A DNA stretch of 64,000 bases from Balanoglossus misakiensis (taxonomy: Eukaryota; Animalia; Hemichordata). A program made the position numbers and the translations under genes. Of the stretch, positions 4,354 to 61,168 are shown piece by piece. Location: positions 2,138,902 to 2,202,901 of the forward strand of contig CM082585.2 in assembly GCA_040954595.2 (NCBI GenBank), given 5' to 3'. Under the pieces are notes generated by a model. That model did no database searches. It had not been told where the DNA came from and was given only the letters and a program-made list of their open reading frames with translations. Position 1 is the stretch's first letter; each line of letters opens with the position of its first letter.

Positions 4354-6807
4354 ATGCCAAAATCAACACTAAAAGAATTAAGCCAGAAAGAGACCAACGC
4401 CTACCACGATGTTACCACTCAAGTTAAACTAATCTACTATGAAAATACCTCGACCAACGAAAAATTTAAACGGGCTGTGGTGGCAGACCACACCGCTGCC
4501 ACCACTCTGTATATCTGGTCAACCAGAGAAGACACGTTGTCTTTATTGAGAGCAAATGAAGGAAGTACACTATTTCTTGGTCCGAAAATTTACGTGCGTT
4601 CCAACGGGATTTCCATCAACCAAGGCTCCACCTTGGCTGTTAATAGGGTGGACCTCAACATTCCTGAAAGTGTCGCAACCGAGGCTCACGGACTTCGCTG
4701 TCGCATGACAGAGCAAGCACCCACTGCTGCTGTTGTCACTATGGCCGCAGCAATTGCCGACAACACCAATTATCACAACATATCAGGAACTGTAGTAAGG
4801 GTAAGTTTACACTTAAAATGCTCACTCATTTCACAATTCACCCATTTTCGCCCTAGATATTTCGCGGCCAACAACAATCTCACGTAATCGGATTAACCGC
4901 CCACTTCCATTGTCACGAATAAACTCTGCCACAAATCAACACCAACACGTTACTTTAATTGACGTAGTCGTGTTTTCCACAAGATCACGAACATTTCGCT
5001 TACGTTTTATTGACTTCATTCACTCCTCTGTTACCCATATATACAATGACCGTCTTCGTTTTCCCGACGTTACACGACCTTCACCACAGCTGGTCACGTA
5101 CCGTACACCGAACAACCGCGTATGCAATGCTATTCCACGTCGTGAAGATCCCTCGATGGACAGGAGAGGGGTCCGTTCCCAATCGACCTCGAAGGGTAGA
5201 AAGGTCCGTTTCCTATTGACTTCTACCCCCACCTCACCTTTTCCCGACCGTTCATCTCACAAACCTCATGGTACACTCTTTACCGTTTTCCATTTGTTTA
5301 TTACTTCTTCTGTCTTTTAGGTTCAAAACACCAAAGCCACCCACACCCGGTACGGCAAATTACCACGCAGAACTATTGGACTTGGAGACAGCTCAGGGGT
5401 GTACAAACTAACCGTATGGGGAGATCTTACGAAGTGTGAGCTCACCACTGGTGATGTTATAACTATTACCAATGTGAAGAAAGCTGCCTCGTTCAACAAC
5501 CGCCTCACATCCAGGCAATCCACCACAATATCAGTATCGGTAAGTACTTCACTGATCAGTCAATACAATACACTATACAGTGTATACCAACAGGAAATTG
5601 TCCTGGTACCACCCCTTTCGTTTTCAGGTATTATGTTCACTACAAACAACTTGACTATACTGAAACTGTCCACTGTTTTTCCTGTATTCCCTGCTCAAAC
5701 AATTCATTACAATATTCACATTTCTTTTTCTTTGCCCATGACAACATATAGTGAATCCACAAGTAACATTTCAATACTATTCCAAACTTTCGTTTCCACT
5801 TTTCCAAATGCGTTCAGTACTTTGTTTTGCAATCAAAGCTTCTTCCTCAGAGCTACATTATTCAACATAATAGTAGACAACATATATTATCCGCTGTTGT
5901 CATTATTCAGTTCTTCAAACATCCAATTCAGCATATACATTTCCAGACACACGAACCACAGCTTCATTTATCAAAAACACACGCAGGTAATCTAATCTTT
6001 CCCTAATTCTATTTCAGGCTCATGAAACCCTATCACACCAAAACACTACAGACACCTTATCGGCGGATTCCGATGACAGCTCAAACTGGACAACCGGGAC
6101 ATTACAAGGGCTCTCCAATCTACAGAGAGTTCTCTTATGTGCAGATGCGCCTCGGTGCAATGGATTTCTCAATGACAGCAACAGGTAATCCAAAATTCCT
6201 CTTCATCCGCACTTACCACCAGCCCCTCAATACCTTGTGTGCAGACACCAGCTGAGCTATACATAGCAGTTTTTTCATGCAATGTCCCATTTTCAGACAT
6301 AAGCCATTCCGCTGGAAAAATTTACCAGTGCACAGCCACTCAATAACATCTCTTCCTTATATCCCAACAATCCAATTGGCTTCCTTACAACTAAATATTC
6401 ACATGACATCCGTAACATCCCTTATTCAACTTTACTTCAATACTTATATTCTTCCACATTACTGCATGTTACACCCTTTCCACATCAGCCAGCAATCAAC
6501 ATATTTATTCCACCAACTTCAACATTGCCTATTTCTCATTTCTTTCAGATGTCGTTTCTGCAGAAAGAATAAAAGCCCATCCTGCAGACCAGGCACAATA
6601 CTTTCCCTCTTAATACAAACCGGTGATGACCTTGACACATACAAGATCTACCCAAAGGAGACCAAGTATTTACTCAGAAAATTCTCCATTAACCCCGTCA
6701 ACACCACCCAGAAACAACTGCAGGACGCCGTCACCGACATCTGCGATGGACGCGAGCTCCAATTTAAGGCCAACTCTGCCAACACCATCACCACTTTCAA
6801 AAACTAG
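4354..6807 (+). CDS. Spliced RPA70-like ssDNA-binding protein (tandem OB folds + C4 zinc ribbon), about 363 aa; exons 4354-4800, 5321-5539, 6018-6184, 6549-6807
   Basis: Donors are GTAAGT (4801, 5540) and GTAATC (6185). Pyrimidine-rich acceptors end at 5320, 6017 and 6548. Phases 0,0,2 join into 1092 nt with no internal stop. OB-like strands: NISGTVVRV..RRTIGLGDSSGVYKLTVWGD..GDVITITNV. The motif LCADAPRCNGFLNDSNRCRFC is assembled across intron 3. Confidence 0.8.
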
Positions 6808-7513
6808 TGTTTTTCAACGTACTGCCTTCATTTGCTCTCCATTCCACAACCCTTTCCCGATTACACACTTTACCAGCGCTCCCTCCATTCATTCATTATA
6901 ACATTTCCTTCCCTGCTTTTTTTATTACACTTGAAGACATTTTTTAGTGACACATTCTTTTTATTTCACATGCTTTTAGTTATTTGTTCAGTTTGTCATT
7001 TTCTTTCTTGCCTTTTTTTTATGTGACATTCACATTTCTCTACTTGATTTGACATTTTTCACTGTTTTTTTCCCCTAGGTTAGACAATTTTTGACTGCTT
7101 CATTTAATTAGACATTTTTTCCAATGATTTTTTTATTTCAGTTTACACGTTCTTCAGTGATACATTTTATATTTAACATTTCTTTAGTATTTTGTACCAT
7201 TCAACATAATTTATACTTGTTACTGTTCTCTTTATTTACTTTGACATTTTTTACTGCTTCCATTACATTTTTTATTGCGTCATTCAATTTCATTTCTTTA
7301 AAACAATTTATATGCAACACAACTCATTCCCATTGTTATATTTATTACTTTACATGATTTATAATTAAACTACAGAAAACGTACACTGCCTGCTCCCTTC
7401 TTTCGTGCTTAAACATTGAATTTCAGTATGCTGCCCAATTCAGCAAAATAGACACTGGATGCCTTACCTACCTCTGCTACTGTGGCACCCCTCATCTCCG
7501 TACTCCACTGTTT

Positions 7514-7541
7514 AAATGGGACCACAGTGTCCTTGACGCTA
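7514..7541 (+). other. Helentron 3' terminus: subTIR + short palindrome
   Basis: AAATGGGACCACAGTGTCCTTGACGCTA is identical to 30745-30772. AATGGGACC is the reverse complement of the HINE 5' GGTCCCATT. Confidence 0.85.
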
Positions 7542-10086
7542 TTTTTGATGATTTTCACCCATATTATTTTTCAAAAACCGACGAAATTTTGAAATTTTGC
7601 AGTCGAAAATTTGTCATTTTTTGATGATTTTCACCCATGTTTTTTTTTTAAAATGGACGAAATTTTGAGATTTTGCAAAGACGAAAATTTGTCATTTTTT
7701 GATGATTTTAACCCATGATTTTTTTTCAAAAATGGACGAAATTTTGAGATTTTGCAAAGTCGAAAATTTGTCATTTTTTGATGATTTTCACCCATGATTT
7801 TTTTCAAAAATCGACGAAATGTTGAGATTTTGCAAAGTCGAAAATTTGTCATTTTTTGATGATTTTCACCCATGATTTTTTTCAAAAATCGACGAAATTG
7901 TGAGATTTTGCAAAGTCGATAATTTGTCATTTTTTGTTGATTTTCCCCCAATGGTTTTTTTCAAAATCGACGAAATTTTGAGAATTTGCAAAGTCGAAAA
8001 TTTGTCATTTTTTGATGATTTTCCCCAATGTTTTTTTTTTAAAATGGACGAAATTTTGAGATTTTGCAAAGTCGAAAATTTGTCATTTTTTGATTATTTT
8101 CACCCATGATTTTTTTCAAAAATCGACGAAATGTTGAGATTTTGCAAAGTCGAAAATTTGTAATTTTTTGATGATTTTCACCCATGATTTTTTTCAAAAA
8201 TCGACGAAATTGTGAGATTTTGCAAAGTCGATAATTTGTCATTATTTGATTATTTTCACCCATGATTTTTTTAAAAAATCGACGAAATTGTGAGATTTTG
8301 CAAAGTCAAAAATTTGTCATTTTTTGATGATTTTCACCCATGTTTTTTTTTTAAAAAAACGACGAACCTATGATTTTTTTCAAAATCGACGAAATTTTGA
8401 GATTTTGCAAAGTCGAAAATTTGTCATTTTTTGATGATTTTCCCCAATGATTTTTTTCAAAAATCGACGAAATGTTGAGATTTTGCAAAGTCGAAAATTT
8501 GTCATTTTTTGATGATTTTCTCCCATGATTTTTTTCAAAAATCGACGAAATTGTGAGATTTTGCAAAGTCGAAAATTTGTCATTTTTTGATGATTTTCAC
8601 CCATGTTTTTTTTTAAATCGACGAACCTATGATTTTTTTTTAAATCGACGAAATTTTGAGATTTTGCAAAGTCGAAAATTTGTCATTTTTTGATGATTTT
8701 CACCCATGATTTTTTTCAAAAATCGACGAAATTGTGAGATTTTGCAAAGTCGATAATTTTGTCATTTTTTGATGATTTTCAACCATATTATTTTTCAAAA
8801 ACCGACGAAATTTTGAGATTTTGCATAGACGAAAATTTGTCATTTTTTGATGATTTTTACCCATGATTTTTTTTCAAAAATGGACGAAATTTTGAGATTT
8901 TGCAAAGTCGAAAATTTGTCATTTTTTGATGATTTTCACCCATGATTTTTTTCAAAAATCGACGAAATGTTGAGATTTTGCAAAGTCGAAAATTTGTCAT
9001 TTTTTGATGATTTTCACCCATGATTTTTTTCAAAAATCGACGAAATTGTGAGATTTTGCAAAGTCGATAATTTGTCATTTTTTGATGATTTTCCCCCATG
9101 TTTTTTTTTAAAATCGACGAAATTTTGAGAATTTGCAAAGTCGAAAATTTGTCATTTTTTGATGATTTTCACCCATGATTTTTTTCAAAAATCGACGAAA
9201 TTTTGAGATTTTGCAAAGTCAAAAATTTGTCATTTTTTGATGATTTTCATCCATGTTTTTTTTTTAAAAAAAAGACGAACCTATGATTTTTTTCAAAATC
9301 GACGAAATTTTGAGATTTTGCAAAGTCGAAAATTTTGTCATTTTTTGATGATTTTCACCCATGATTTTTTCAAAAATTGACGAAATTTTGAGATTTTGCA
9401 AAGTCGAAAATTTGTCATTTTTTGATGATTTTCACCCATGATTTTTTTCAAAAATCGACGAAATGTTGAGATTTTGCAAAGTCGAAAATTTGTCATTTTT
9501 TGATGATTTTCACCCAAGATTTTTTTCAAAAATCGACGAAATGTTGAGATTTTGCAAAGTCGAAAATTTGTCATTTTTTGATGATTTTCATCCATGATTT
9601 TTTTCAAAAATCGACGAAATGTTGAGATTTTGCAGTCAAAAATTTGTCATTTTTTGATGATTTTCACCTATGATTTTTTTCAAAAATCGACGAAATGTTG
9701 AGATTTTGCAAAGTCGAAAATTTGTCATTTTTTGATGATTTTCTCCCATGATTTTTTTCAAAAATCGACGAAATTGTGAGATTTTGCAAAGTCGAAAATT
9801 TGTCATTTTTTGATGATTTTCACCCATGTTTTTTTTTTTAAATCGACGAACCTATGATTTTTTTCAAAATCGACGAAATTTTGAGATTTTGCAAAGTCGA
9901 AAATTTGTCATTTTTTGATGATTTTCACCCATGATTTTTTTCAAAAATCGACGAAATGTTGAGATTTTGCAAAGTCGATAATTTGTCATTTTTTGATGAT
10001 TTTCCCCCAATGGTTTTTTTCAAAAATCGACGAAATTGTGAGATTTTGCAAAGTCGATAATTTGTCATTTTTTAATGATTTTCCCC
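7542..10086 (+). repeat. 78-bp tandem satellite, block 1
   Basis: Consensus CATGATTTTTTTCAAAAATCGACGAAATTTTGAGATTTTGCAAAGTCGAAAATTTGTCATTTTTTGATGATTTTCACC. The 26-aa periodicity of the spurious ORFs confirms the 78-bp unit. Some ~104-bp variants carry an extra ~26-bp subunit. Confidence 0.97.
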
Positions 10087-10192
10087 AATTATTTGAGATC
10101 TCTCTAACACACAAAACAAGGACACAGGTTTGGCAGCTGAAGGCAAGAGCCATTATTTATTTACGTGAACTGGGTGCTCTTGCAGGCCCAAC
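10087..10192 (-). repeat. Split direct repeat B (106 bp), terminal copy B2; other copies at 10505-10610, 16161-16266, 21084-21189
   Basis: AATTA(T/C)TTGAGATCTCTCTAACAC...GCAGGCCCAAC occurs four times. It contains AATAAA on the minus strand, a candidate polyA signal. Confidence 0.92.
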
Positions 10193-10340
10193 ACAACTGG
10201 GAATAACAACTCGCAATGATGAAAGGACCATTGCAAAATACATGGATGAAAAAGGTTACAATCGTGAAGTACAGTATTGACCAGAGAACCACTGTAAATC
10301 TGCAAATACACATCTTATTTGTTGAGGGCGGGCGGGTGGG

Positions 10341-10504
10341 GAAATTGGGGCAGAGAGAGCGAGCATTGCAGGACACGCTCAGAACCCTTGAAGTGGTCGT
10401 GAGTGATGGATTATGGGATTTTTGAGGCTCGTTTGAGGTTGAGGGCGCCCCTTTTCGAGTTGCTTAATTGGGTAACATTATGCCGTTGATCGCAATGTTA
10501 CCTA
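10341..10504 (-). repeat. Split direct repeat A (164 bp), copy A2; other copies at 15997-16160, 20920-21083, 25836-25999
   Basis: GAAATTG(G/A)GGCAGAGAGAGC...AATGTTACCTA occurs four times. It abuts B at 10504/10505, 16160/16161 and 21083/21084. Confidence 0.92.
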
Positions 10505-10654
10505 AATTACTTGAGATCTCTCTAACACACAAACCAAGGACACAGGTTTGGCAGCTGAAGGCAAGAGCCATTATTTATTTACGTGAACTGGGGGCTCTTG
10601 CAGGCCCAACCACTGCCAAACCCGGTCCGCCTCTCTGCTAGTGCCACAGTAAAA

Positions 10655-11680
10655 TCAGTGTGACGCGGAGATGTCTTTAAGATGCTGACCCATTTGAAAG
10701 GACACCAGATAACGAGTCTGAAATGGAATGTTAAGATAACGGAGATACGCGCTGGATTGCCAATCCCCTTGGAGTTTGATAAGCTCCCCAGGGACCCCAC
10801 TTTCGAATGCAAAGGTTGCACCCCCACGACGGAGGCTGTGACCTGAGTACATGTCAGCAGGAAAGCCTGCCCTCTGAACTAAACATTTGATACTTTTCAC
10901 CAGCCCTGAATGGGTCAAGGGGACCAATTTGCCACATTTGGGAAAAACAAATGCTGGGCTAGAGGGTGGGGCTGGGATGATCTCACACATGTGATTGTAT
11001 GCCTGTAAAGGGCACAACACCGAACCTGGAATGTGGGCAAGTGGAATAGTCAAACAGCGTTCGCGAAACTGAATGGTTTTTGACCAAGTCACGCCGATTA
11101 TAAGGCCAGAATCTGAGGAAATGACTTTACCCCTACAGAGGTGTTTAGCCGGATCAAAGTCGGTTGCAGACTTCGGAACAAGATTTGACTTGCGAAAAAA
11201 GGAGAAAAACCCTATCAAAAGGCATGCCCACAAAGTAACATCGAATGGAACAGCCACATCTAGAAGCCCGAAAAACTGTAGCAACAACTGGGGGGTGATG
11301 GGTAATTTCTGCCTCACTGGCTGGAAAGTGCTACGGGAAAGACATTTCAAAAGTAATTTGACAACATACTGATCAGCGGCCAATGGCGTGAAGCCATGGA
11401 TTCTATGCAAGGTACGAATTGCGTACAAATAATTCTGAATGGTGCCAGTAGCAGTTACTGATCTTGCAAGAAACTGGATAAATCTACACACTGTAAGAAC
11501 AGATGCTGGAACAGGAGTAAAATTGAAAAACTGACAAAACAGGAAGTAACTCTTCAACTGTGACGACAAATTCCGACGAGTTCCTTCCGCTAATGCTGAC
11601 CTCATTGAGATAGCGATTTGAGCGTCTAAGGCTTGGATAGTTTGGCAGTGATCTGAAATAAAAATAAAATCAGTCACCAC
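10655..11680 (-). CDS. Tyrosine recombinase, copy 1 (intact frame)
   Basis: FFRKSNL, WSKT, GHSLRRGGA and GDWQSSAYLRY supply the R-K-H-R-W-Y catalytic set. Confidence 0.93.
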   Translation of the reverse strand: MVTDFIFISDHCQTIQALDAQIAISMRSALAEGTRRNLSSQLKSYFLFCQFFNFTPVPASVLTVCRFIQFLARSVTATGTIQNYLYAIRTLHRIHGFTPLAADQYVVKLLLKCLSRSTFQPVRQKLPITPQLLLQFFGLLDVAVPFDVTLWACLLIGFFSFFRKSNLVPKSATDFDPAKHLCRGKVISSDSGLIIGVTWSKTIQFRERCLTIPLAHIPGSVLCPLQAYNHMCEIIPAPPSSPAFVFPKCGKLVPLTHSGLVKSIKCLVQRAGFPADMYSGHSLRRGGATFAFESGVPGELIKLQGDWQSSAYLRYLNIPFQTRYLVSFQMGQHLKDISASH

Positions 11681-14600
11681 TCATTGAGAAAGCGAATGTC
11701 ATCCTCGGCGACTGGGTGCTCGGTCATTTGAGAAATATTAACAGATGATTTGAAGAGTTGCTCATAACTTGGGTCAAGATGCCAGCGACTGAGCGCATCA
11801 GCCAGCCGGTTCTCGGTGCCTGCGATGTGCACAGCACGTAGCTCAAACTCGTGAATCGCTGCTACCAGCCATAATTCCCTCAAGCAAGACAGCATTAGTT
11901 TATCCCTAGCTCTACCGGTATTAATGACCCAAACTGTTGCCTGGTTGTCGCAAGAGACCTGTATTTTCTTTCCAGACCATCTATCACCCCAAATTTTTGC
12001 CGCTATAGTAATAGTGAGTAATTCGAGGGCATTAATGTGAGGGTCCCCAACCTTTACAAAGTCAGGGAACTCCACGTGGAAATACTCGTTGTCGCAAAGC
12101 CCCCCTCCCCCTTTTGGGCATGCATCCGAAGAAAATATTTCATCTGGCGGGCACCAACCTGACTCTTTAATGAGAGACACCCCATTATAAACCCTAATGA
12201 AATTAATCCACCACCGTAGATCTGCCTTGAAATCACTGTTTAGATAGATATGGTAGTGATTGCGGGTGACGGTACGCAACACATCTAGCATTCTCGCCAG
12301 GAATAGCCTACCAGGCTTGACACATTTGGCAATAAAGGAAAGCTTGCCTATGAGTGATTGCAGCTCGCGCTTAGTTGCTTTTGTTTTAGTGACCCATACA
12401 CCCAGCTCTTGCTCTATTTCATTAAGCCGGTCAGGAGTAACTTCCATAGTCATTGTAAGGGAGTTCAACTGGATTCCAAGAAAAGTCATGATTGATGACG
12501 GGGGCACCGCTTTGTGTTTGGCTTCTTGCAAACCCAGTCTATCCAGCGTGTCACCTAGCTCCGCAAATGCCTTGTGGGCTTTGTTGGAGGTCTCTGCACC
12601 ACCGAAGTCGTCAAGGTAATTAACACAGTCATACCCTTTCGTGGAATAGATATAAGAAACCGCATTAGTGGTGCGCTGGCAGGCTAGCGCTGCGGTTCGC
12701 AAGCCAAATGGCAATGTAAGGTCAAAGAACAATAAATTACGCCACGTGTAGCCCAGCAAATGGTAGTCCGCTGGATCGACTGGTATTTGCCGATAAGCTC
12801 TGCTTAAATCGCGCTTAAATAGGAGGCATCCCCTGCCCTTACGGGTCATCATTGCAGTGAAATCATCAATGGAAGGATATTGAAGCTGAAAACTCTCCCC
12901 AAGATATTCCCCTTTGGGGATACCGTCATTTACTGAATGGTGGATTGGGGAACTAAGATCAAAGACTATACGCCGATTAACACTATCTTTTTTTCGACAG
13001 TCTGAATGGGGGAAGTACTGAGTGGTGTGGCAAGGGGGTTAGTTAAGAACGGACCCGCTGTAGCCCCGGCTGCGACTTCGTTAATGATCCAGTTGTCGAC
13101 ATGCGCCGAGTAATTTATAGCTGATGGGTGGTTTTTCACTGTAGAGTATGGCAATTCTGAGGCTGTATAGTAGACGGGCCAACCATATTGTAGGTAATCG
13201 CAGATGATTTTGTCATCATATTGCTGCAATTCGGCTCGCCAAATTGGGATTTGAAGATTTGATGAAACGGGTATTCTGCAAAATTGAGAATTTGGTAAAC
13301 CTGATTCAACAACTATGTCATGAACGGTTATAACTTCTGTTAAATCAGGGGGTGACGCTTGTGGCCATGACGACGGGGGACAGACATCCCCGCCCACGGG
13401 AGTATCTGATAACTCAGAATACTGCATATCATTGCCCAGTGGATAAGTGTCTGGAACACTGTGATCAACAAGGGTGGGGTTGGGAGGCCCCATATTTGGA
13501 ACATTTTCCACAGTAAACATATCACTAACAAAGACATCGTGGTCATCACTGATCATACCGTCAGATGAACCATGAGCGCTAATCTCACATGCAAATTCAG
13601 TGGTATCACCGACGGTATGGGCTAGTGATTCAATAGGGATTTGCTTGTCAAGATCAGTCTCAATATCAGGTTCTATCAAATCAACTGTATGAGTTTTACA
13701 AAGGTATTTGTCAACATTATCCCTGCTAACAGAGGTATCAAAACAACCTGTGTGTTCAGAGGCAACATTGGCAATGGTACATGTTACTGGCTCGTCAATC
13801 GAAAGCACTGGTTCAGAAATACTACTAGGGTTAACAATAGCATCCCGCAAAACCTCCGGGTTGCACATTGACAGGCTTCTTGAAATATCAATCTCCATGT
13901 CAGTTTGTACAGAGCGATCACACTTGTGCACTGCCTGATCTGTGATGCCCATCAATGTATAAAAGTCATTGATATTACACTCCGTGCCTGCACTTTTGAC
14001 TCTATGGTTCAATTTAGGAATTAAATTGCTGTCACAGTCATGAGAGTCTTGTTTAGACTTATCTACCTCTGCTTTAAATCAAGGGGTGACGCTTGTGGCC
14101 ATGACGACGGGGGACAGACATCCCCGCCCACGGGAGTATCTGATAACTCAGAATACTGCATATCATTGCCCAGTGGATAAGTGTCTGGAACACTGTGATC
14201 AACAAGGGTGGGGTTGGGAGGCCCCATATTTGGAACATTTTCCACAGTAAACATATCACTAACAAAGACATCGTGGTCATCACTGATCATACCGTCAGAT
14301 GAACCATGAGCGCTAATCTCACATGCAAATTCAGTGGTATCACCGACGGTATGGGCTAGTGATTCAATAGGGATTTGCTTGACAAGATCAGTCTCAATAT
14401 CAGGTTCTATCAAATCAACTGTATGAGTTTTACAAAGGTATTTGTCAACATTATCCCTGCTAACAGAGGTATCAAAACAACCTGTGTGTTCAGAGGCAAC
14501 ATTGGCAATGGTACATGTTACTGGCTCGTCAATCGAAAGCACTGGTTCAGAAATACTACTAGGGTTAACAATAGCATCCCGCAAAACCTCCGGGTTGCAC

Positions 14601-15979
14601 ATTGACAGGCTTCTTGAAATATCAATCTCCATGTCAGTTTGTACAGAGCGATCACACTTGTGCACTGCCTGATCTGTGATGCCCATCAATGTATAAAAGT
14701 CATTGATATTACACTCCGTGCCTGCACTTTTGACTCTATGGTTCAATTTAGGAATTAAATTGCTGTCACAGTCATGAGAGTCTTGTTTAGACTTATCTAC
14801 CTCTGCTTTGCCAGAACTATCGGTCAACTTGTTGCTCTCTTGCTCTCTAAAGGCCTTATCCTTCCAGGGGCTGGCAATCTTGGGATGCTTGGCCAGGTTG
14901 TTACGCAACTTCATGCAGGCTTCACATATGTGTTTGAATGCGCAATCCTCCTTCTCGCACTTGTTACTTTGGTATTTGAAACATACATTAATCTGATCCT
15001 TCTTTTTGGATTTGTCCGCTGTTTTATCCCGTCTGATCTCGCCGATACGCGGCAGCAAATATAGCTCTCTCAGATCTGCGGTGTCATTTGCCCATGTTCT
15101 GAGTCCTGACTCCATGTCAGAGAGGAGCGCGCCCTCGAACTTCAAGATGGCGTCCCAGGGGAACAAATTGGCGTCTTTCATAAGCGACTGTAAGTGTTGT
15201 AATCGCTGCTGTTTCTCTGTGTCACTCAAAGTAGGAAGTTGCACTATCGCGAGATTACCTTCCACAAATTCCGCCATTGACATATCATCGAATTTTGGTG
15301 GGGCGCCCGAGAATGTCCGAGCCCTGACGAACATGTGCGGCCATAGGACGTGCTGTCGCACACGATCGGTTCTGGTGTTGAACCGCATCGATTTCATTGG
15401 TACGTTACCTGCTTTGCTCTGCGCTGCTGTGTATAAACCGGACTGTGCCAGGAGTTGGTTCGGTTGGAGGTCTTCACCGCCGCCAGCGGCCCCTGTCGCT
15501 GGTAGCCACGGACTGCCTGATGGTAACGACCACTGCAATTGTGAGTCTTCTTTCGCCATCCTCTTGAGATCGGGTAGCGTGAGTTGACTCAGGTCGTGAC
15601 TTCTGGGACTTCCGCTCGAAGCAGCTGGCGGGCTGCGTCGTTCCTTCTCCAGTTTCATTTCTTTTAGTTGTTTTCTTAAATTGTCTACTTCAGATTGCTC
15701 CTGCAGTCTCGCTATCTCCGCCTGCAACTTCTCTTTCTCTGACCTCACATCTTCCCCGTCAGATGAAGTGTCTTCTTCCTTGACAGGTTTGCTACATTTC
15801 CCGCCTTTCGAACGAGCTGACGCCATTGGTACTTTGGAAAGTTTGGTGGGGGGGACCACGCGAACTTTTCGACCGGTCGATGCTCTTGTCGTAGTCTTAC
15901 TGCGAGTTGCAGGTCCCTTTTTGGCGACTGGACTGGGCTCTATTCCCAAATCCAGCAGCTGTTGTTCAGCGTTCTCCAT
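11674..15979 (-). pseudogene. Gag-RT-RNaseH, copy 1, disrupted
   Basis: Near-identical to copy 2. It is broken by a 734-bp tandem duplication (junction about 14075) and a 1-bp shorter T-run at 12988-12994, which split it into ORFs 14063-15979, 12966-14012 and 11674-12852. Confidence 0.9.
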
Positions 15980-16310
15980 AATAACGGTGAGAAATTGAAA
16001 TTGAGGCAGAGAGAGCGTGCACTGCAGGACACGCTCCGAACCCTTGAAGTGGCCGTGAGTGATGGATTATGGGATTTTTGAGGCTCGTTTGAGGTTGAGG
16101 GCGCCCCTTTTCGAGTTGCTTAATTGGGTAACATTATGCCGTTGATCGCAATGTTACCTAAATTACTTGAGATCTCTCTAACACACAAACCAAGGACACA
16201 GGTTTGGCAGCTGAAGGCAAGAGCCATTATTTATTTACGTGAACTGGGGGCTCTTGCAGGCCCAACCACTGCCAAACCCGGTCCGCCTCTCTGCTAGTGC
16301 CACAGTAAAA

Positions 16311-17336
16311 TCAGTGTGACGCGGAGATGTCTTTAATATGCTGACCCATTTGAAAGGACACCAGATAACGAGTCTGAAATGGAATGTTAAGATAACGGAG
16401 ATACGCGCTGGATTGCCAATCCCCTTGGAGTTTGATAAGCTCCCCAGGGACCCCACTTTCGAATGCAAAGGTTGCACCCCCACGACGGAGGCTGTGACCC
16501 GAGTACATGTCAGCAGGAAAGCCTGCCCTCTGAACTAAACATTTGATACTTTTCACCAGCCCTGAATGGGTCAAGGGGACCAATTTGCCACATTTGGGAA
16601 AAACAAATGCTGGGCTAGAGGGTGGGGCTGGGATGATCTCACACATGTGATTGTATGCCTGTAAAGGGCACAACACCGAACCTGGAATGCGGGCAAGTGG
16701 AATAGTCAAACAGCGTTCGCGAAACTGAATGGTTTTTGACCAAGTCACGCCGATTATAAGGCCAGAATCTGAGGAAATGACTTTACCCCTACAGAGGTGT
16801 TTAGCCGGATCAAAGTCGGTTGCAGACTTCGGAACAAGATTTGACTTGCGAAAAAAGGAGAAAAACCCTATCAAAAGGCATGCCCACAAAGTAACATCGA
16901 ATGGAACAGCCACATCTAGAAGCCCGAAAAACTGTAGCAACAACTGGGGGGTGATGGGTAATTTCTGCCTCACCGGCTGGAAAGTGCTACGGGAAAGACA
17001 TTTCAAAAGTAATTTGACAACATACTGATCAGCGGCCAATGGCGTGAAGCCATGGATTCTATGCAAGGTACGAATTGCGTACAAATAATTCTGAATGGTG
17101 CCAGTAGCAGTTACTGATCTTGCAAGAAACTGGATAAATCTACACACTGTAAGAACAGATGCTGGAACAGGAGTAAAATTGAAAAACTGACAAAACAGGA
17201 AGTAACTCTTCAACTGTGACGACAAATTCCGACGAGTTCCTTCCGCTAATGCTGACCTCATTGAGATAGCGATTTGAGCGTCTAAGGCTTGGATAGTTTG
17301 GCAGTGATCTGAAATAAAAATAAAATCAGTCACCAC
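16311..17336 (-). CDS. Tyrosine recombinase, copy 2 (intact frame)
   Basis: Same catalytic motifs as copy 1. The frame starts right after a TGA with GTG and contains a splice-acceptor-like tract ending at 17309. Confidence 0.93.
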   Translation of the reverse strand: MVTDFIFISDHCQTIQALDAQIAISMRSALAEGTRRNLSSQLKSYFLFCQFFNFTPVPASVLTVCRFIQFLARSVTATGTIQNYLYAIRTLHRIHGFTPLAADQYVVKLLLKCLSRSTFQPVRQKLPITPQLLLQFFGLLDVAVPFDVTLWACLLIGFFSFFRKSNLVPKSATDFDPAKHLCRGKVISSDSGLIIGVTWSKTIQFRERCLTIPLARIPGSVLCPLQAYNHMCEIIPAPPSSPAFVFPKCGKLVPLTHSGLVKSIKCLVQRAGFPADMYSGHSLRRGGATFAFESGVPGELIKLQGDWQSSAYLRYLNIPFQTRYLVSFQMGQHIKDISASH

Positions 17337-20300
17337 TCATTGAGAAAGCGAATGTCATCCTCGGCGACTGGGTGCTCGGTCATTTGAGAAATATTAACAG
17401 ATGATTTGAAGAGTTGCTCATAACTTGGGTCAAGATGCCAGCGACTGAGCGCATCAGCCAGCCGGTTCTCGGTGCCTGCGATGTGCACAGCACGTAGCTC
17501 AAACTCGTGAATCGCTGCTACCAGCCATAATTCCCTCAAGCAAGACAGCATTAGTTTATCCCTAGCTCTACCGGTATTAATGACCCAAACTGTTGCCTGG
17601 TTGTCGCAAGAGACCTGTATTTTCTTTCCAGACCATCTATCACCCCAAATTTTTGCCGCTATAGTAATAGTGAGTAATTCGAGGGCATTAATGTGAGGGT
17701 CCCCAACCTTTACAAAGTCAGGGAACTCCACGTGGAAATACTCGTTGTCGCAAAGCCCCCCTCCCCCTGTTGGGCATGCATCCGAAGAAAATATTTCATC
17801 TGGCGGGCACCAACCTGACTCTTTAATGAGAGACACCCCATTATAAACCCTAATGAAATTAATCCACCACCGTAGATCTGCCTTGAAATCACTGTTTAGA
17901 TAGATATGGTAGTGATTGCGGGTGACGGTACGCAACACATCTAGCATTCTCGCCAGGAATAGCCTACCAGGCTTGACACATTTGGCAATAAAGGAAAGCT
18001 TGCCTATGAGTGATTGCAGCTCGCGCTTAGTTGCTTTTGTTTTAGTGACCCATACACCCAGCTCTTGCTCTATTTCATTAAGCCGGTCAGGAGTAACTTC
18101 CATAGTCATTGTAAGGGAGTTCAACTGGATTCCAAGAAAAGTCATGATTGATGACGGGGGCACCGCTTTGTGTTTGGCTTCTTGCAAACCCAGTCTATCC
18201 AGCGTGTCACCTAGCTCCGCAAATGCCTTGTGGGCTTTGTTGGAGGTCTCTGCACCACCGAAGTCGTCAAGGTAACTAACACAGTCATACCCTTTCGTGG
18301 AATAGATATAAGAAACCGCATTAGTGGTGCGCTGGCAGGCTAGCGCTGCGGTTCGCAAGCCAAATGGCAATGTAAGGTCAAAGAACAATAAATTACGCCA
18401 CGTGTAGCCCAGCAAATGGTAGTCCGCTGGATCGACTGGTATTTGCCGATAAGCTCTGCTTAAATCGCGCTTAAATAGGAGGCATCCCCTGCCCTTACGG
18501 GTCATCATTGCAGTGAAATCATCAATGGAAGGATATTGAAGCTGAAAACTCTCCCCAAGATATTCCCCTTTGGGGATACCGTCATTTACTGAATGGTGGA
18601 TTGGGGAACTAAGATCAAAGACTATACGCCGATTAACACTATCTTTTTTTTCGACAGTCTGAATGGGGGAAGTACTGAGTGGTGTGGCAAGGGGGTTAGT
18701 TAAGAACGGACCCGCTGTAGCCCCGGCTGCGACTTCGTTAATGATCCAGTTGTCGACATGCGCCGAGTAATTTATAGCTGATGGGTGGTTTTTCACTGTA
18801 GAGTATGGCAATTCTGAGGCTGTATAGTAGACGGGCCAACCATATTGTAGGTAATCGCAGATGATTTTGTCATCATATTGCTGCAATTCGGCTCGCCAAG
18901 TTGGGATTTGAAGATTTGATGAAACGGGTATTCTGCAAAATTGAGAATTTGGTAAACCTGATTCAACAACTATGTCATGAACGGTTATAACTTCTGTTAA
19001 ATCAGGGGGTGACGCTTGTGGCCATGACGACGGGGGACAGACATCCCCGCCCACGGGAGTATCTGATAACTCAGAATACTGCATATCATTGCCCAGTGGA
19101 TAAGTGTCTGGAACACTGTGATCAACAAGGGTGGGGTTGGGAGGCCCCATATTTGGAACATTTTCCACAGTAAACATATCACTAACAAAGACATCGTGGT
19201 CATCACTGATCATACCGTCAGATGAACCATGAGCGCTAATCTCACATGCAAATTCAGTGGTATCACCGACGGTATGGGCTAGTGATTCAATAGGGATTTG
19301 CTTGTCAAGATCAGTCTCAATATCAGGTTCTATCAAATCAACTGTATGAGTTTTACAAAGGTATTTGTCAACATTATCCCTGCTAACAGAGGTATCAAAA
19401 CAACCTGTATATTCAGAGGCAACATTGGCAATGGTACATGTTACTGGCTCGTCAATCGAAAGCACTGGTTCAGAAATACTACTAGGGTTAACAATAGCAT
19501 CCCGCAAAACCTCCGGGTTGCACATTGACAGGCTTCTTGAAATATCAATCTCCATGTCAGTTTGTACAGAGCGATCACACTTGTGCACTGCCTGATCTGT
19601 GATGCCCATCAATGTATAAAAGTCATTGATATTACACTCCGTGCCTGCACTTTTGACTCTATGGTTCAATTTAGGAATTAAATTGCTGTCACAGTCATGA
19701 GAGTCTTGTTTAGACTTATCTACCTCTGCTTTGCCAGAACTATCGGTCAACTTGTTGCTCTCTTGCTCTCTAAAGGCCTTATCCTTCCAGGGGCTGGCAA
19801 TCTTGGGATGCTTGGCCAGGTTGTTACGCAACTTCATGCAGGCTTCACATATGTGTTTGAATGCGCAATCCTCCTTCTCGCACTTGTTACTTTGGTATTT
19901 GAAACATACATTAATCTGATCCTTCTTTTTGGATTTGTCCGCTGTTTTATCCCGTCTGATCTCGCCGATACGCGGCAGCAAATATAGCTCTCTCAGATCT
20001 GCGGTGTCATTTGCCCATGTTCTGAGTCCTGACTCCATGTCAGAGAGGAGCGCGCCCTCGAACTTCAAGATGGCGTCCCAGGGAAACAAATTGGCGTCTT
20101 TCATAAGCGACTGTAAGTGTTGTAATCGCTGCTGTTTCTCTGTGTCACTCAAAGTAGGAAGTTGCACTATCGCGAGATTACCTTCCACAAATTCCGCCAT
20201 TGACATATCATCGAATTTTGGTGGGGCGCCCGAGAATGTCCGAGCCCTGACGAACATGTGCGGCCATAGGACGTGCTGTCGCACACGATCGGTTCTGGTG

Positions 20301-20902
20301 TTGAACCGCATCGATTTCATTGGTACGTTACCTGCTTTGCTCTGCGCTGCTGTGTATAAACCGGACTGTGCCAGGAGTTGGTTCGGTTGGAGGTCTTCAC
20401 CGCCGCCAGCGGCCCCTGTCGCTGGTAGCCACGGACTGCCTGATGGTAACGACCACTGCAATTGTGAGTCTTCTTTCGCCATCCTCTTGAGATCGGGTAG
20501 CGTGAGTTGACTCAGGTCGTGACTTCTGGGACTTCCGCTCGAAGCGGCTGGCGGGCTGCGTCGTTCCTTCTCCAGTTTCATTTCTTTTAGTTGTTTTCTT
20601 AAATTGTCTACTTCAGATTGCTCCTGCAGTCTCGCTATCTCCGCCTGCAACTTCTCTTTCTCTGACCTCACATCTTCCCCGTCAGATGAAGTGTCTTCTT
20701 CCTTGACAGGTTTGCTACATTTCCCGCCTTTCGAACGAGCTGACGCCATTGGTACTTTGGAAAGTTTGGTGGGGGGGACCACGCGAACTTTTCGACCGGT
20801 CGATGCTCTTGTCGTAGTCTTACTGCGAGTTGCAGGTCCCTTTTTGGCGACTGGACTGGGCTCTATTCCCAAATCCAGCAGCTGTTGTTCAGCGTTCTCC
20901 AT
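17330..20902 (-). CDS. Fused Gag-RT-RNaseH polyprotein, copy 2 (1190 aa)
   Basis: Coiled-coil-like EKEKLQAEIARLQEQSEVDNLRKQLKEMK. Cys/His finger CFKYQSNKCEKEDCAFKHICEAC..H. RT motifs: KRDLSRAYRQIP, LPFG, YLDDF, FLG. RNase H motifs: SSDAC, HINALELL, CDNQA, HIAGTENRLADALSR. Confidence 0.94.
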   Translation of the reverse strand: MENAEQQLLDLGIEPSPVAKKGPATRSKTTTRASTGRKVRVVPPTKLSKVPMASARSKGGKCSKPVKEEDTSSDGEDVRSEKEKLQAEIARLQEQSEVDNLRKQLKEMKLEKERRSPPAASSGSPRSHDLSQLTLPDLKRMAKEDSQLQWSLPSGSPWLPATGAAGGGEDLQPNQLLAQSGLYTAAQSKAGNVPMKSMRFNTRTDRVRQHVLWPHMFVRARTFSGAPPKFDDMSMAEFVEGNLAIVQLPTLSDTEKQQRLQHLQSLMKDANLFPWDAILKFEGALLSDMESGLRTWANDTADLRELYLLPRIGEIRRDKTADKSKKKDQINVCFKYQSNKCEKEDCAFKHICEACMKLRNNLAKHPKIASPWKDKAFREQESNKLTDSSGKAEVDKSKQDSHDCDSNLIPKLNHRVKSAGTECNINDFYTLMGITDQAVHKCDRSVQTDMEIDISRSLSMCNPEVLRDAIVNPSSISEPVLSIDEPVTCTIANVASEYTGCFDTSVSRDNVDKYLCKTHTVDLIEPDIETDLDKQIPIESLAHTVGDTTEFACEISAHGSSDGMISDDHDVFVSDMFTVENVPNMGPPNPTLVDHSVPDTYPLGNDMQYSELSDTPVGGDVCPPSSWPQASPPDLTEVITVHDIVVESGLPNSQFCRIPVSSNLQIPTWRAELQQYDDKIICDYLQYGWPVYYTASELPYSTVKNHPSAINYSAHVDNWIINEVAAGATAGPFLTNPLATPLSTSPIQTVEKKDSVNRRIVFDLSSPIHHSVNDGIPKGEYLGESFQLQYPSIDDFTAMMTRKGRGCLLFKRDLSRAYRQIPVDPADYHLLGYTWRNLLFFDLTLPFGLRTAALACQRTTNAVSYIYSTKGYDCVSYLDDFGGAETSNKAHKAFAELGDTLDRLGLQEAKHKAVPPSSIMTFLGIQLNSLTMTMEVTPDRLNEIEQELGVWVTKTKATKRELQSLIGKLSFIAKCVKPGRLFLARMLDVLRTVTRNHYHIYLNSDFKADLRWWINFIRVYNGVSLIKESGWCPPDEIFSSDACPTGGGGLCDNEYFHVEFPDFVKVGDPHINALELLTITIAAKIWGDRWSGKKIQVSCDNQATVWVINTGRARDKLMLSCLRELWLVAAIHEFELRAVHIAGTENRLADALSRWHLDPSYEQLFKSSVNISQMTEHPVAEDDIRFLNEW

Positions 20903-21233
20903 AATAACGGTGAGAAATTGAAATTGAGGCAGAGAGAGCGTGCACTGCAGGACACGCTCCGAACCCTTGAAGTGGCCGTGAGTGATGGATTATGGGATTT
21001 TTGAGGCTCGTTTGAGGTTGAGGGCGCCCCTTTTCGAGTTGCTTAATTGGGTAACATTATGCCGTTGATCGCAATGTTACCTAAATTACTTGAGATCTCT
21101 CTAACACACAAACCAAGGACACAGGTTTGGCAGCTGAAGGCAAGAGCCATTATTTATTTACGTGAACTGGGGGCTCTTGCAGGCCCAACCACTGCCAAAC
21201 CCGGTCCGCCTCTCTGCTAGTGCCACAGTAAAA

Positions 21234-22258
21234 TCAGTGTGACGCGGAGATGTCTTTAATATGCTGACCCATTTGAAAGGACACCAGATAACGAGTCTGA
21301 AATGGAATGTTAAGATAACGGAGATACGCGCTGGATTGCCAATCCCCTTGGAGTTTGATAAGCTCCCCAGGGACCCCACTTTCGAATGCAAAGGTTGCAC
21401 CCCCACGACGGAGGCTGTGACCCGAGTACATGTCAGCAGGAAAGCCTGCCCTCTGAACTAAACATTTGATACTTTTCACCAGCCCTGAATGGGTCAAGGG
21501 GACCAATTTGCCACATTTGGGAAAATGAATGCTGGGCTAGAGGGTGGGGCTGGGATGATCTCACACATGTGATTGTATGCCTGTAAAGGGCACAACACCG
21601 AACCTGGAATGCGGGCAAGTGGAATAGTCAAACAGCGTTCGCGAAACTGAATGGTTTTTGACCAAGTCACGCCGATTATAAGGCCAGAATCTGAGGAAAT
21701 GACTTTACCCCTACAGAGGTGTTTAGCCGGATCAAAGTCGGTTGCAGACTTCGGAACAAGATTTGACTTGCGAAAAAAGGAGAAAAACCCTATCAAAAGG
21801 CATGCCCACAAAGTAACATCGAATGGAACAGCCACATCTAGAAGCCCGAAAAACTGTAGCAACAACTGGGGGGTGATGGGTAATTTCTGCCTCACTGGCT
21901 GGAAAGTGCTACGGGAAAGACATTTCAAAAGTAATTTGACAACATACTGATCAGCGGCCAATGGCGTGAAGCCATGGATTCTATGCAAGGTACGAATTGC
22001 GTACAAATAATTCTGAATGGTGCCAGTAGCAGTTACTGATCTTGCAAGAAACTGGATAAATCTACACACTGTAAGAACAGATGCTGGAACAGGAGTAAAA
22101 TTGAAAAACTGACAAAACAGGAAGTAACTCTTCAACTGTGACGACAAATTCCGACGAGTTCCTTCCGCTAATGCTGACCTCATTGAGATAGCGATTTGAG
22201 CGTCTAAGGCTTGGATAGTTTGGCAGTGATCTGAAATAAAAATAAAATCAGTCACCAC
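21234..22258 (-). pseudogene. Tyrosine recombinase, copy 3, frameshifted
   Basis: GGGAAAATGAATG at about 21519-21531 replaces GGGAAAAACAAATG of copies 1 and 2 (net -1 nt). This separates HSLRRGG and the catalytic Tyr from the N-terminal part. Confidence 0.88.
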
Positions 22259-25200
22259 TCATTGAGAAAGCGAATGTCATCCTCGGCGACTGGGTGCTCG
22301 GTCATTTGAGAAATATTAACAGATGATTTGAAGAGTTGCTCATAACTTGGGTCAAGATGCCAGCGACTGAGCGCATCAGCCAGCCGGTTCTCGGTGCCTG
22401 CGATGTGCACAGCACGTAGCTCAAACTCGTGAATCGCTGCTACCAGCCATAATTCCCTCAAGCAAGACAGCATTAGTTTATCCCTAGCTCTACCGGTATT
22501 AATGACCCAAACTGTTGCCTGGTTGTCGCAAGAGACCTGTATTTTCTTTCCAGACCATCTATCACCCCAAATTTTTGCCGCTATAGTAATAGTGAGTAAT
22601 TCGAGGGCATTAATGTGAGGGTCCCCAACCTTTACAAAGTCAGGGAACTCCACGTGGAAATACTCGTTGTCGCAAAGCCCCCCTCCCCCTGTTGGGCATG
22701 CATCCGAAGAAAATATTTCATCTGGCGGGCACCAACCTGACTCTTTAATGAGAGACACCCCATTATAAACCCTAATGAAATTAATCCACCACCGTAGATC
22801 TGCCTTGAAATCACTGTTTAGATGGTAGTGATTGCGGGTGACGGTACGCAACACATCTAGCATTCTCGCCAGGAATAGCCTACCAGGCTTGACACATTTG
22901 GCAATAAAGGAAAGCTTGCCTATGAGTGATTGCAGCTCGCGCTTAGTTGCTTTTGTTTTAGTGACCCATACACCCAGCTCTTGCTCTATTTCATTAAGCC
23001 GGTCAGGAGTAACTTCCATAGTCATTGTAAGGGAGTTCAACTGGATTCCAAGAAAAGTCATGATTGATGACGGGGGCACCGCTTTGTGTTTGGCTTCTTG
23101 CAAACCCAGTCTATCCAGCGTGTCACCTAGCTCCGCAAATGCCTTGTGGGCTTTGTTGGAGGTCTCTGCACCACCGAAGTCGTCAAGGTAATTAACACAG
23201 TCATACCCTTTCGTGGAATAGATATAAGAAACCGCATTAGTGGTGCGCTGGCAGGCTAGCGCTGCGGTTCGCAAGCCAAATGGCAATGTAAGGTCAAAGA
23301 ACAATAAATTACGCCACGTGTAGCCCAGCAAATGGTAGTCCGCTGGATCGACTGGTATTTGCCGATAAGCTCTGCTTAAATCGCGCTTAAATAGGAGGCA
23401 TCCCCTGCCCTTACGGGTCATCATTGCAGTGAAATCATCAATGGAAGGATATTGAAGCTGAAAACTCTCCCCAAGATATTCCCCTTTGGGGATACCGTCA
23501 TTTACTGAATGGTGGATTGGGGAACTAAGATCAAATACTATACGCCGATTAACACTATCTTTTTTTTCGACAGTCTGAATGGGGGAAGTACTGAGTGGTG
23601 TGGCAAGGGGGTTAGTTAAGAACGGACCCGCTGTAGCCCCGGCTGCGACTTCGTTAATGATCCAGTTGTCGACATGCGCCGAGTAATTTATAGCTGATGG
23701 GTGGTTTTTCACTGTAGAGTATGGCAATTCTGAGGCTGTATAGTAGACGGGCCAACCATATTGTAGGTTATCGCAGATGATTTTGTCATCATATTGCTGC
23801 AATTCGGCTCGCCAAATTGGGATTTGAAGATTTGATGAAACGGGTATTCTGCAAAATTGAGAATTTGGTAAACCTGATTCAACAACTATGTCATGAACGG
23901 TTATAACTTCTGTTAAATCAAGGGGTGACGCTTGTGGCCATGACGACGGGGGACAGACATCCCCGCCCACGGGAGTATCTGATAACTCAGAATACTGCAT
24001 ATCATTGCCCAGTGGATAAGTGTCTGGAACACTGTGATCAACAAGGGTGGGGTTGGGAGGCCCCATATTTGGAACATTTTCCACAGTAAACATATCACTA
24101 ACAAAGACATCGTGGTCATCACTGATCATACCGTCAGAGGAACCATGAGCGCTAATCTCACATGCAAATTCAGTGGTATCACCGACGGTATGGGCTAGTG
24201 ATTCAATAGGGATTTGCTTGTCAAGATCAGTCTCAATATCAGGTTCTATCAAATCAACTGTATGAGTTTTACAAAGGTATTTGTCAACATTATCCCTGCT
24301 AACAGAGGTATCAAAACAACCTGTGTGTTCAGAGGCAACATTGGCAATGGTACATGTTACTGGCTCGTCAATCGAAAGCACTGGTTCAGAAATACTACTA
24401 GGGTTAACAATAGCATCCCGCAAAACCTCCGGGTTGCACATTGACAGGCTTCTTGAAATATCAATCTCCATGTCAGTTTGTACAGAGCGATCACACTTGT
24501 GCACTGCCTGATCTGTGATGCCCATCAATGTATAAAAGTCATTGATATTACACTCCGTGCCTGCACTTTTGACTCTATGGTTCAATTTAGGAATTAAATT
24601 GCTGTCACAGTCATGAGAGTCTTGTTTAGACTTATCTACCTCTGCTTTGCCAGAACTATCGGTCAACTTGTTGCTCTCTTGCTCTCTAAAGGCCTTATCC
24701 TTCCAGGGGCAGGCAATCTTGGGATGCTTGGCCAGGTTGTTACGCAACTTCATGCAGGCTTCACATATGTGTTTGAATGCGCAATCCTCCTTCTCGCACT
24801 TGTTACTTTGGTATTTGAAACATACATTAATCTGATCCTTCTTTTTGGATTTGTCCGCTGTTTTATCCCGTCTGATCTTGCCGATACGCGGCAGCAAATA
24901 TAGCTCTCTCAGATCTGCGGTGTCATTTGCCCATGTTCTGAGTCCTGACTCCATGTCAGAGAGGAGCGCGCCCTCGAACTTCAAGATGGCGTCCCAGGGG
25001 AACAAATTGGCGTCTTTCATAAGCGACTGTAAGTGTTGTAATCGCTGCTGTTTCTCTGTGTCACTCAAAGTAGGAAGTTGCACTATCGCGAGATTACCTT
25101 CCACAAATTCCGCCATTGACATATCATCGAATTTTGGTGGGGCGCCCGAGAATGTCCGAGCCCTGACGAACATGTGCGGCCATAGGACGTGCTGTCGCAC

Positions 25201-25818
25201 ACGATCGGTTCTGGTGTTGAACCGCATCGATTTCATTGGTACGTTACCTGCTTTGCTCTGCGCTGCTGTGTATAAACCGGACTGTGCCAGGAGTTGGTTC
25301 GGTTGGAGGTCTTCACCGCCGCCAGCGGCCCCTGTCGCTGGTAGCCACGGACTGCCTGATGGTAACGACCACTGCAATTGTGAGTCTTCTTTCGCCATCC
25401 TCTTGAGATCGGGTAGCGTGAGTTGACTCAGGTCGTGACTTCTGGGACTTCCGCTCGAAGCGGCTGGCGGGCTGCGTCGTTCCTTCTCCAGTTTCATTTC
25501 TTTTAGTTGTTTTCTTAAATTGTCTACTTCAGATTGCTCCTGCAGTCTCGCTATCTCCGCCTGCAACTTCTCTTTCTCTGACCTCACATCTTCCCCGTCA
25601 GATGAAGTGTCTTCTTCCTTGACAGGTTTGCTACATTTCCCGCCTTTCGAACGAGCTGACGCCATTGGTACTTTGGAAAGTTTGGTGGGGGGGACCACGC
25701 GAACTTTTCGACCGGTCGATGCTCTTGTCGTAGTCTTACTGCGAGTTGCAGGTCCCTTTTTGGCGACTGGACTGGGCTCTATTCCCAAATCCAGCAGCTG
25801 TTGTTCAGCGTTCTCCAT
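22252..25818 (-). CDS. Fused Gag-RT-RNaseH polyprotein, copy 3 (1188 aa)
   Basis: Same motifs as copy 2. It has an in-frame 6-bp deletion (HYHIYLN to HYHLN) and retains the final finger Cys (KIACP). Confidence 0.93.
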   Translation of the reverse strand: MENAEQQLLDLGIEPSPVAKKGPATRSKTTTRASTGRKVRVVPPTKLSKVPMASARSKGGKCSKPVKEEDTSSDGEDVRSEKEKLQAEIARLQEQSEVDNLRKQLKEMKLEKERRSPPAASSGSPRSHDLSQLTLPDLKRMAKEDSQLQWSLPSGSPWLPATGAAGGGEDLQPNQLLAQSGLYTAAQSKAGNVPMKSMRFNTRTDRVRQHVLWPHMFVRARTFSGAPPKFDDMSMAEFVEGNLAIVQLPTLSDTEKQQRLQHLQSLMKDANLFPWDAILKFEGALLSDMESGLRTWANDTADLRELYLLPRIGKIRRDKTADKSKKKDQINVCFKYQSNKCEKEDCAFKHICEACMKLRNNLAKHPKIACPWKDKAFREQESNKLTDSSGKAEVDKSKQDSHDCDSNLIPKLNHRVKSAGTECNINDFYTLMGITDQAVHKCDRSVQTDMEIDISRSLSMCNPEVLRDAIVNPSSISEPVLSIDEPVTCTIANVASEHTGCFDTSVSRDNVDKYLCKTHTVDLIEPDIETDLDKQIPIESLAHTVGDTTEFACEISAHGSSDGMISDDHDVFVSDMFTVENVPNMGPPNPTLVDHSVPDTYPLGNDMQYSELSDTPVGGDVCPPSSWPQASPLDLTEVITVHDIVVESGLPNSQFCRIPVSSNLQIPIWRAELQQYDDKIICDNLQYGWPVYYTASELPYSTVKNHPSAINYSAHVDNWIINEVAAGATAGPFLTNPLATPLSTSPIQTVEKKDSVNRRIVFDLSSPIHHSVNDGIPKGEYLGESFQLQYPSIDDFTAMMTRKGRGCLLFKRDLSRAYRQIPVDPADYHLLGYTWRNLLFFDLTLPFGLRTAALACQRTTNAVSYIYSTKGYDCVNYLDDFGGAETSNKAHKAFAELGDTLDRLGLQEAKHKAVPPSSIMTFLGIQLNSLTMTMEVTPDRLNEIEQELGVWVTKTKATKRELQSLIGKLSFIAKCVKPGRLFLARMLDVLRTVTRNHYHLNSDFKADLRWWINFIRVYNGVSLIKESGWCPPDEIFSSDACPTGGGGLCDNEYFHVEFPDFVKVGDPHINALELLTITIAAKIWGDRWSGKKIQVSCDNQATVWVINTGRARDKLMLSCLRELWLVAAIHEFELRAVHIAGTENRLADALSRWHLDPSYEQLFKSSVNISQMTEHPVAEDDIRFLNEW

Positions 25819-25999
25819 AATAACGGTGAGAAATTGAAATTGAGGCAGAGAGAGCGAGCACTGCAGGACACGCTCCGAACCCTTGAAGTGGCCGTGAGTG
25901 ATGGATTATGGGATTTTTGAGGCTCGTTTGAGGTTGAGGGCGCCCCTTTTCGAGTTGCTTAATTGGGTAACATTATGCCGTTGATCGCAATGTTACCTA

Positions 26000-60860: not shown

Positions 60861-61168
60861 AGTTTTTTTTTATCTTAGATTTTTTCGTTTATTCTAAATT
60901 TAGTATACTAAGGTAAATTAAAACTCCTTTATATATAATAAAGTACATAATGTGTATTTTAGTTTATTTTCCGAGCTACAGTCCCATCTCATAAAATGGA
61001 CCCTTGAGGCACCCTCCCTACCACGGACGGTGCAATAAACAACCCAAGAAGCATAACGATTCTTTTCTGATATCTTGGTATTCTCAATCATCATTTTCAC
61101 GAAACCCAGTTCTGTTTGATCTACTCATCGCCAGTGTCGTTATCTTCAAGAACATTTCCCCCTGGTTT

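Follow-up and report, generated by a model that had tools for sequence, protein, structure and literature searches.

Organization of the Locus

The window, i.e., the whole 64,000-nucleotide stretch of Balanoglossus misakiensis DNA analyzed here, carries on its minus strand three tandem units of one retrotransposon (10087–25999), embedded in 78-bp satellite DNA (Table 1). The satellite array is long, occupying positions 7486–10090 and 26000–64000, with an inverted stretch near 59100–63900. On the plus strand, several stop-to-stop frames of 126–261 aa lie at 3110–6807, and the four that were scanned had no Pfam match. The A and B repeats that delimit the units are 97–98% identical between the ends of the array, and an AATAAA is located at 16235, inside repeat B. 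Neighboring units have a single B-A junction in common, and the array is bounded by one A at the 5' end and by B-A-B at the 3' end; such an array could have arisen from a multimeric circle or by unequal exchange between A repeats. At the junctions of this one insertion with its satellite flanks, no duplicated word that would represent a target-site duplication was found.

In copy 2, the open reading frames are all co-oriented on the minus strand in the order Gag, RT, RNase H, and finally a tyrosine recombinase (YR). Gag, RT, and RNase H occupy a single frame (ORF1), which extends from an ATG at 20902 to a TGA at 17332–17330, and its RT domain is recognized by Pfam (RVT_1, E-value 1.1e-07). The 36 residues past the last RNase H motif contain no D/N/S-P-P-aromatic motif, and no methyltransferase match was obtained with Pfam. 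The element resembles neither the PAT-like nor the DIRS-like elements, as it lacks a methyltransferase as well as inverted termini and an ICR. According to passages in several papers, Ngaro elements are defined by A1-ORFs-B1-A2-B2 repeats, by gag, RT/RNase H, and YR genes, and by the lack of a methyltransferase; the same passages describe the ORFs of Ngaro-like elements as overlapping or frameshifted and mention no intron (PMC8547959; PMC9210276; PMC13465315; PMC3783388). The element is therefore a Ngaro-like YR retrotransposon, an assignment based on structure (repeats, gene order, and no methyltransferase) rather than on RT phylogeny. It shares with Ngaro-like elements (order DIRS) the split direct repeats, the order and orientation of the genes, the missing methyltransferase, and a YR frame that starts at the end of RT. 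On the other hand, it differs from those described in having Gag and RT in one ORF, no SGNH ORF, a spacer of 148 bp between A2 and B2, and three tandem units.

Table 1. Coordinates of the retrotransposon array and of the predicted splice signals in the window (copy 2 unless stated otherwise).
Feature	Position	Strand	Remarks
Tandem array	10087..25999	-	Order A-ORFs-B-A-ORFs-B-A-ORFs-B-A-spacer-B
Split direct repeat A, 164 bp	20920..21083; also 25836..25999, 15997..16160, 10341..10504	-	
Split direct repeat B, 106 bp	16161..16266; also 21084..21189, 10505..10610, 10087..10192	-	
ORF1 (Gag-RT-RNase H), 1190 aa	17330..20902	-	No internal stop; would be read from unspliced RNA
Predicted exon 1, coding part, 571 nt	20332..20902	-	Gag codons 1–190 plus one base
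Phase-1 splice donor	20326..20334	-	Intron start 20331, 65 nt upstream of Gag WP motif
Conserved Gag core (approximate bounds)	19943..20326	-	Removed by predicted splice
Gag Cys/His zinc-finger-like region	19808..19906	-	Removed by predicted splice
Predicted GT-AG intron, 3023 nt	17309..20331	-	Gag core, zinc finger, RT, RNase H
Branch-like pentamer, T-rich tract, and phase-1 AG acceptor	17309..17329	-	Directly 3' of RT stop
Predicted exon 2, tyrosine recombinase, 998 nt	16311..17308	-	
Copy 1, same predicted intron, 3756 nt	11653..15408	-	Join still 522 aa
Copy 3, same predicted intron, 3017 nt	22231..25247	-	Join 435 aa

The Tyrosine Recombinase and its Predicted Intron

The YR retains the full set of catalytic residues (Arg154, Lys192, His272, Arg275, Trp298, and Tyr306, numbered from the acceptor codon). 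Like Cre, which has the same residue set, it is predicted to adopt a two-domain fold (Z 22.7, rmsd 2.8, 273 aligned residues); unlike Cre, to which it is approximately 20% identical, it is carried by an RNA-based element and has a predicted Gag-derived N-terminal extension. The Pfam Phage_integrase match has an E-value of 0.0059, below the family cut-off. The closest named YR is that of another acorn worm, Glandiceps talaboti (70% identity), and a search of a viral collection returned no relatives. The first predicted helix of the YR comprises residues 2–19 (pLDDT about 92), and the alignment with Cre begins at residue 10. As the earlier note had observed, the YR frame follows a stop (17339–17337) and has no ATG for 25 codons, its first methionine being codon 26 (17261). 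This methionine is residue 17 in the numbering from the acceptor and lies near the end of the first predicted helix, most of which precedes it.

The YR is likely made by a phase-1 splice that joins Gag codon 190 to an acceptor directly behind RT, yielding a 522-aa Gag-N/YR fusion. The earlier note proposed this join from the letters of copy 2, where it is borne out: the donor at 20331 and the acceptor at 17309 are both phase 1, and the predicted exons form an open frame of 522 aa plus stop. Sites were ranked with a generic splice matrix that had not been fitted to the present data. The acceptor ranks first among the 324 AG sites of the repeat unit and the donor second among 274 GT sites, the single higher-scoring site being located downstream, inside YR. 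The interval has features of a U2-type intron, namely GT...AG ends, a consensus donor, a pyrimidine tract, and a phase that is kept across relatives. Two contig sets from one sample (X1 and X2; the kind of contigs was not recorded) cover the unit without exon joints. Six RNA runs chosen by species label yielded no reads when sampled at about 1%, a depth too low to bear on splicing.

The same sites occur in the other two copies (15408/11653 in copy 1 and 25247/22231 in copy 3), as the earlier note stated. The frame it described does not extend to copy 3, in which a 1-bp deletion near 21529 breaks YR and shortens the join to 435 aa. In copy 1, it is ORF1 that is broken (638 aa), by a direct duplication of about 734–736 bp (13340–14809) and a 1-bp deletion near 12994, and the predicted spliced frame is intact. 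However, copies 1–3 are 99.4–99.7% identical to each other, so their agreement is uninformative on conservation and they count as one.

Conservation of the Acceptor

Relatives were obtained by a scan of a limited set of metagenomes. It confirmed 301 loci, of which the best 80 were retained. Three of these were dropped for want of a YR anchor and two for having less than 150 nt upstream, and the remaining 75 were collapsed to 59 families below 70% YR identity (median pairwise YR identity 39%). An RT match is present in 56 of the families and a Gag-core anchor in 20. When the 100 nt ahead of the conserved YR anchor are scanned, the top-scoring acceptor proves to be phase 1 in 53/59 families, at a distance of 17–27 codons (mostly 21–22) from the anchor. 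Control windows display no such bias, as phase 1 is found in 158/470 windows inside YR and in 171/502 on the RT side. The result is similar without clustering (67/75 loci), with single-linkage clusters at 50% identity (22/25) or 45% identity (8/10), and in wider windows of 300 nt (49/57) or 600 nt (35/49). A matrix-free count of YYNYAG gives 54/59 families, vs. 6–16 in three control windows. Against splicing, no copy lacking the intron occurs among the representatives of the 59 families.

The phase-1 acceptors also share a base pattern that is not singled out by the matrix: T is present at -6 in 45/53 and at -5 in 45/53, and position -4 is free. A TRAY word lies upstream of the acceptor in 41/53 (shuffle mean 25.8, reached in 0/1000 shuffles) and often overlaps the RT stop codon. 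The stricter branch motif YTRAY is not enriched (21/53 vs. 16.9; 140/1000 shuffles). Scores of individual acceptors are moderate; in only 29/59 families does the site outscore every control window taken from the same locus. In the window (17330–17332) and in the relatives, RT ends mostly in Trp-stop, with the stop often forming part of the TRAY word; the RT terminator and the splice signal may thus share bases.

These data bear on the only printed proposal found for the expression of YR. As cited in PMC13003380, Poulter and Butler (2015) place the YR gene in a -1 overlap with RT and regard frameshifting as its probable mode of expression. Programmed -1 ribosomal frameshifting from RT/RNase H would fit the 4-nt -1 overlap of RT and YR in the window, the -1 overlap in 17/56 relatives, and the presence of RT upstream of YR in 29 of 55 gene-model YR proteins of at least 390 aa, although these RT-YR models are gene predictions. 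However, the other 39/56 relatives have no -1 overlap: in 5 the frames are -1 and non-overlapping, in 18 the relation is +1, and in 16 RT and YR are in the same frame. The window has no slippery heptamer, and one is present in only 2 of the 17 relatives with a -1 overlap, 16 of which also carry the phase-1 acceptor. Across the relatives with an RT match, the phase-1 acceptor is present in 51/56 and spans all six RT/YR frame classes. The AG thus keeps its register with YR even though the RT/YR frame relation varies, as predicted by splicing and not by recoding, and frameshifting is very improbable as the route to YR.

Translation of YR from its own RNA or by reinitiation, with either an internal ATG or some other codon as the start, would leave the T-rich stretch as a spacer or a promoter element. 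The methionine at codon 26 in the window could serve such a start, as could the in-frame ATG found at least 12 codons before the YR anchor in 17/59 families. These 17 are nevertheless fewer than the 20.8 expected by chance, and in 38/59 families the stretch ahead of the anchor is entirely free of in-frame ATGs, which makes a separate YR start unlikely. Furthermore, initiation at the window's methionine would remove most of the first predicted YR helix, and a spacer explains neither an AG restricted to a single phase nor the donor. An independent start for YR is accordingly considered extremely improbable.

Conservation of the Donor

In the 20 families that reach the Gag core, the search for donors covered the 150 nt immediately upstream of the WP motif of Gag. 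The best donor is phase 1 in 20/20 families and lies 50–113 nt upstream of this motif. The earlier note had staked splicing on the conservation of donor and acceptor phase in relatives, and both are conserved. The phase of the donor is partly explained by amino-acid content, as the baseline is above one third: phase 1 is best in 56/99 other Gag windows (Fisher p 4e-5 vs. 20/20), and synonymous shuffles yield a mean of 14.3/20 phase-1 donors, with 20 reached by 2/1000. Donor strength is the better signal. The summed donor score is 114.9 vs. 42.6 ± 10.5 in synonymous shuffles, 0/1000 of which reach it, and individually only 4/20 families fall below p 0.05. Joining donor and acceptor leaves a frame that runs uninterrupted as far as the YR stop in 16/20 families; three of the misses are cases in which the scan picked a different AG, and the remaining one has a broken Gag. 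It was also considered whether the donor serves a further acceptor, located ahead of RT. The best such site is in phase in only 8/20 relatives, and in the window it is out of phase; a second acceptor is thus unsupported for this group.

Gene Models and the Choice of Donor

Several public gene models have the predicted arrangement. For instance, XP_077986280.1 (P0001), a 502-aa NCBI model from G. talaboti, consists of Gag-N plus YR; it matches Gag 1–155 of the window at 44% (159 aligned residues) and carries the closest YR named above. Several Branchiostoma NCBI models are built likewise. In three amphioxus pairs (P0173/P0174, P0164/P0133, and P0149/P0134), the fusion follows a full Gag model with 98–99% identity as far as a glycine 22 codons before the WP motif, beyond which it continues as YR; this glycine is at the position of the window's donor. 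Among the 55 long YR proteins, 22 carry an extended N-terminus in which neither RT nor the Gag core is present; some of these are redundant and some are not Gag. Gene models are predictions and may read the same signals as the present scan; they support the quality of the sites and are not proof of RNA. A physical join was also sought with a profile search and with two protein searches that allowed for a shift in length, and among the 17 proteins examined no Gag-N/YR fusion was found outside NCBI gene models. One of them, P0012 (JGI, 544 aa, from a contig of 3737 bp), has an RNase H-like segment in place of Gag, fused to YR exactly at the codon of the acceptor. Either splicing from a cryptic donor or an error of gene prediction could account for it.

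The acceptor could be real and yet be served mainly by another donor, in the 5' leader, at 20181, or in RT, in which case the Gag-N fusion would not be the main product. The evidence for the donor is weaker than that for the acceptor, and a second phase-1 donor-like site does exist at 20181 on the minus strand, inside the Gag core, with counterparts in relatives L006, L013, and L063. In addition, two isoform models of Ptychodera flava (P0297 and P0228, isoforms X1 and X3) have the same N-terminus and YR and differ by a 99-aa block, so that different upstream pieces lead to the same YR start, which suggests two donors to one acceptor. Against this, the site at 20181 and its counterparts sit on an invariant glycine, are explicable by the protein, and may be incidental. 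The donor in the linker before the WP motif, on the other hand, is the top site of the whole Gag frame in 16/19 relatives with an open Gag frame and exceeds the synonymous shuffles, and it is at this codon that the three amphioxus pairs leave Gag. A different principal donor is thus highly unlikely, and the linker donor is preferred as the source of the fusion.

Retained and Removed Parts of Gag

The retained residues 1–190 of Gag comprise a basic N-terminus, a helix with spaced leucines, and a short helical motif common to the fusion models. The helix is a putative coiled coil, called by eye from its leucine spacing. The earlier note described a fusion that lacks the zinc finger, and the predicted splice does remove it; what that description left out is that the conserved Gag core is removed as well. 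The predicted structure of this core is helical and confident (pLDDT 85–97 over residues 1–120). A capsid fold was considered for it, but the model has no clear counterpart: there is no Foldseek match at an E-value of 0.001 (best Z among solved structures 4.6), and no Pfam family is common to two or more members.

In the window's family there is no stop between Gag and RT, and the proposal of the earlier note that unspliced RNA yields Gag-RT-RNase H as one protein is consistent with this single frame. It does not carry over as such to the relatives, where Gag ends in TGA-C in 18/20 and an RT-covering frame follows directly after the stop, in frame, in 15/20. The approximate positions of such ends are 904–907 in L006, 2080–2083 in L007, and 2060–2063 in L012. 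UGA-C is a leaky stop context. The TGA-C at the end of Gag in the relatives, together with the lack of a conserved acceptor ahead of RT, points to a candidate for stop readthrough.

A Proposed Route to the Recombinase

In the proposed mechanism, the spliceosome would use the donor at 20331 and the acceptor at 17309 on a fraction of the transcripts. Unspliced RNA would serve both as genome and as mRNA for Gag-RT-RNase H, the spliced fraction would encode Gag(1–190)-YR, and the efficiency of splicing would set the dose of recombinase. The retained N-terminal helix might then dock YR onto Gag particles, a plausible idea that is the least certain step of the mechanism and is put forward tentatively from the predicted sequence features. 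The packaging idea loses a little of its weight in that the best-conserved domain of Gag is absent from the fusion, and co-assembly would have to rest on the region of the N-terminal helix. Alternatively, the Gag N-terminus may only supply a start codon, or it may act in nuclear targeting.

Precedents for parts of this route exist in other retroelements. According to passages in PMC7828637, foamy viruses express their pol gene from a subgenomic RNA generated by splicing and do not rely on recoding, as is predicted here for YR; their Pol is made apart from Gag, as a protein of its own, and is packaged through RNA. Unlike foamy pol, only the integrating enzyme would be spliced in the present element, and it would keep 190 residues of Gag and skip RT. 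The spliced short Gag RNA of plant Ty1/Copia elements, as described in PMC5580714, is likewise a case of conserved retrotransposon splicing that sets protein ratios. In Ty1/Copia, however, splicing and early termination lead to an excess of Gag (PMC5580714), whereas the splice predicted here would take out RT entirely, along with the greater part of Gag, and so reach an enzyme encoded downstream.

In the literature searched, which consisted mostly of open-access passages and had the primary Ngaro papers and Repbase outside its scope, no account of a Gag-N/YR splice was found; it is likewise absent from passages of PMC7192593, PMC6681497, PMC4157794, PMC9341512, PMC3266345, PMC12477816, and PMC9940879. 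Splicing as a conserved route to YR expression is thus probably undescribed, in an element of a known kind.

A conserved intron, if true, would replace the frameshift proposal for the expression of the recombinase in YR retrotransposons. The predicted enzyme would shift from a protein of about 330 aa to a Gag fusion of about 500–650 aa, which matters for the biochemistry of Cre-like enzymes. It is also suggested that some amphioxus and acorn worm gene models named "xerD homolog" or "uncharacterized" are spliced transposon products. As a possible scheme, held with some reserve, a single start codon in animal Ngaro elements would give rise to Gag (through termination), to Gag-RT (through readthrough of UGA-C or, as in the window, through an open frame), and to Gag-N-YR (through a conserved intron), with the helix common to all three acting as a docking tag that would bring YR into the particle without the Gag core.
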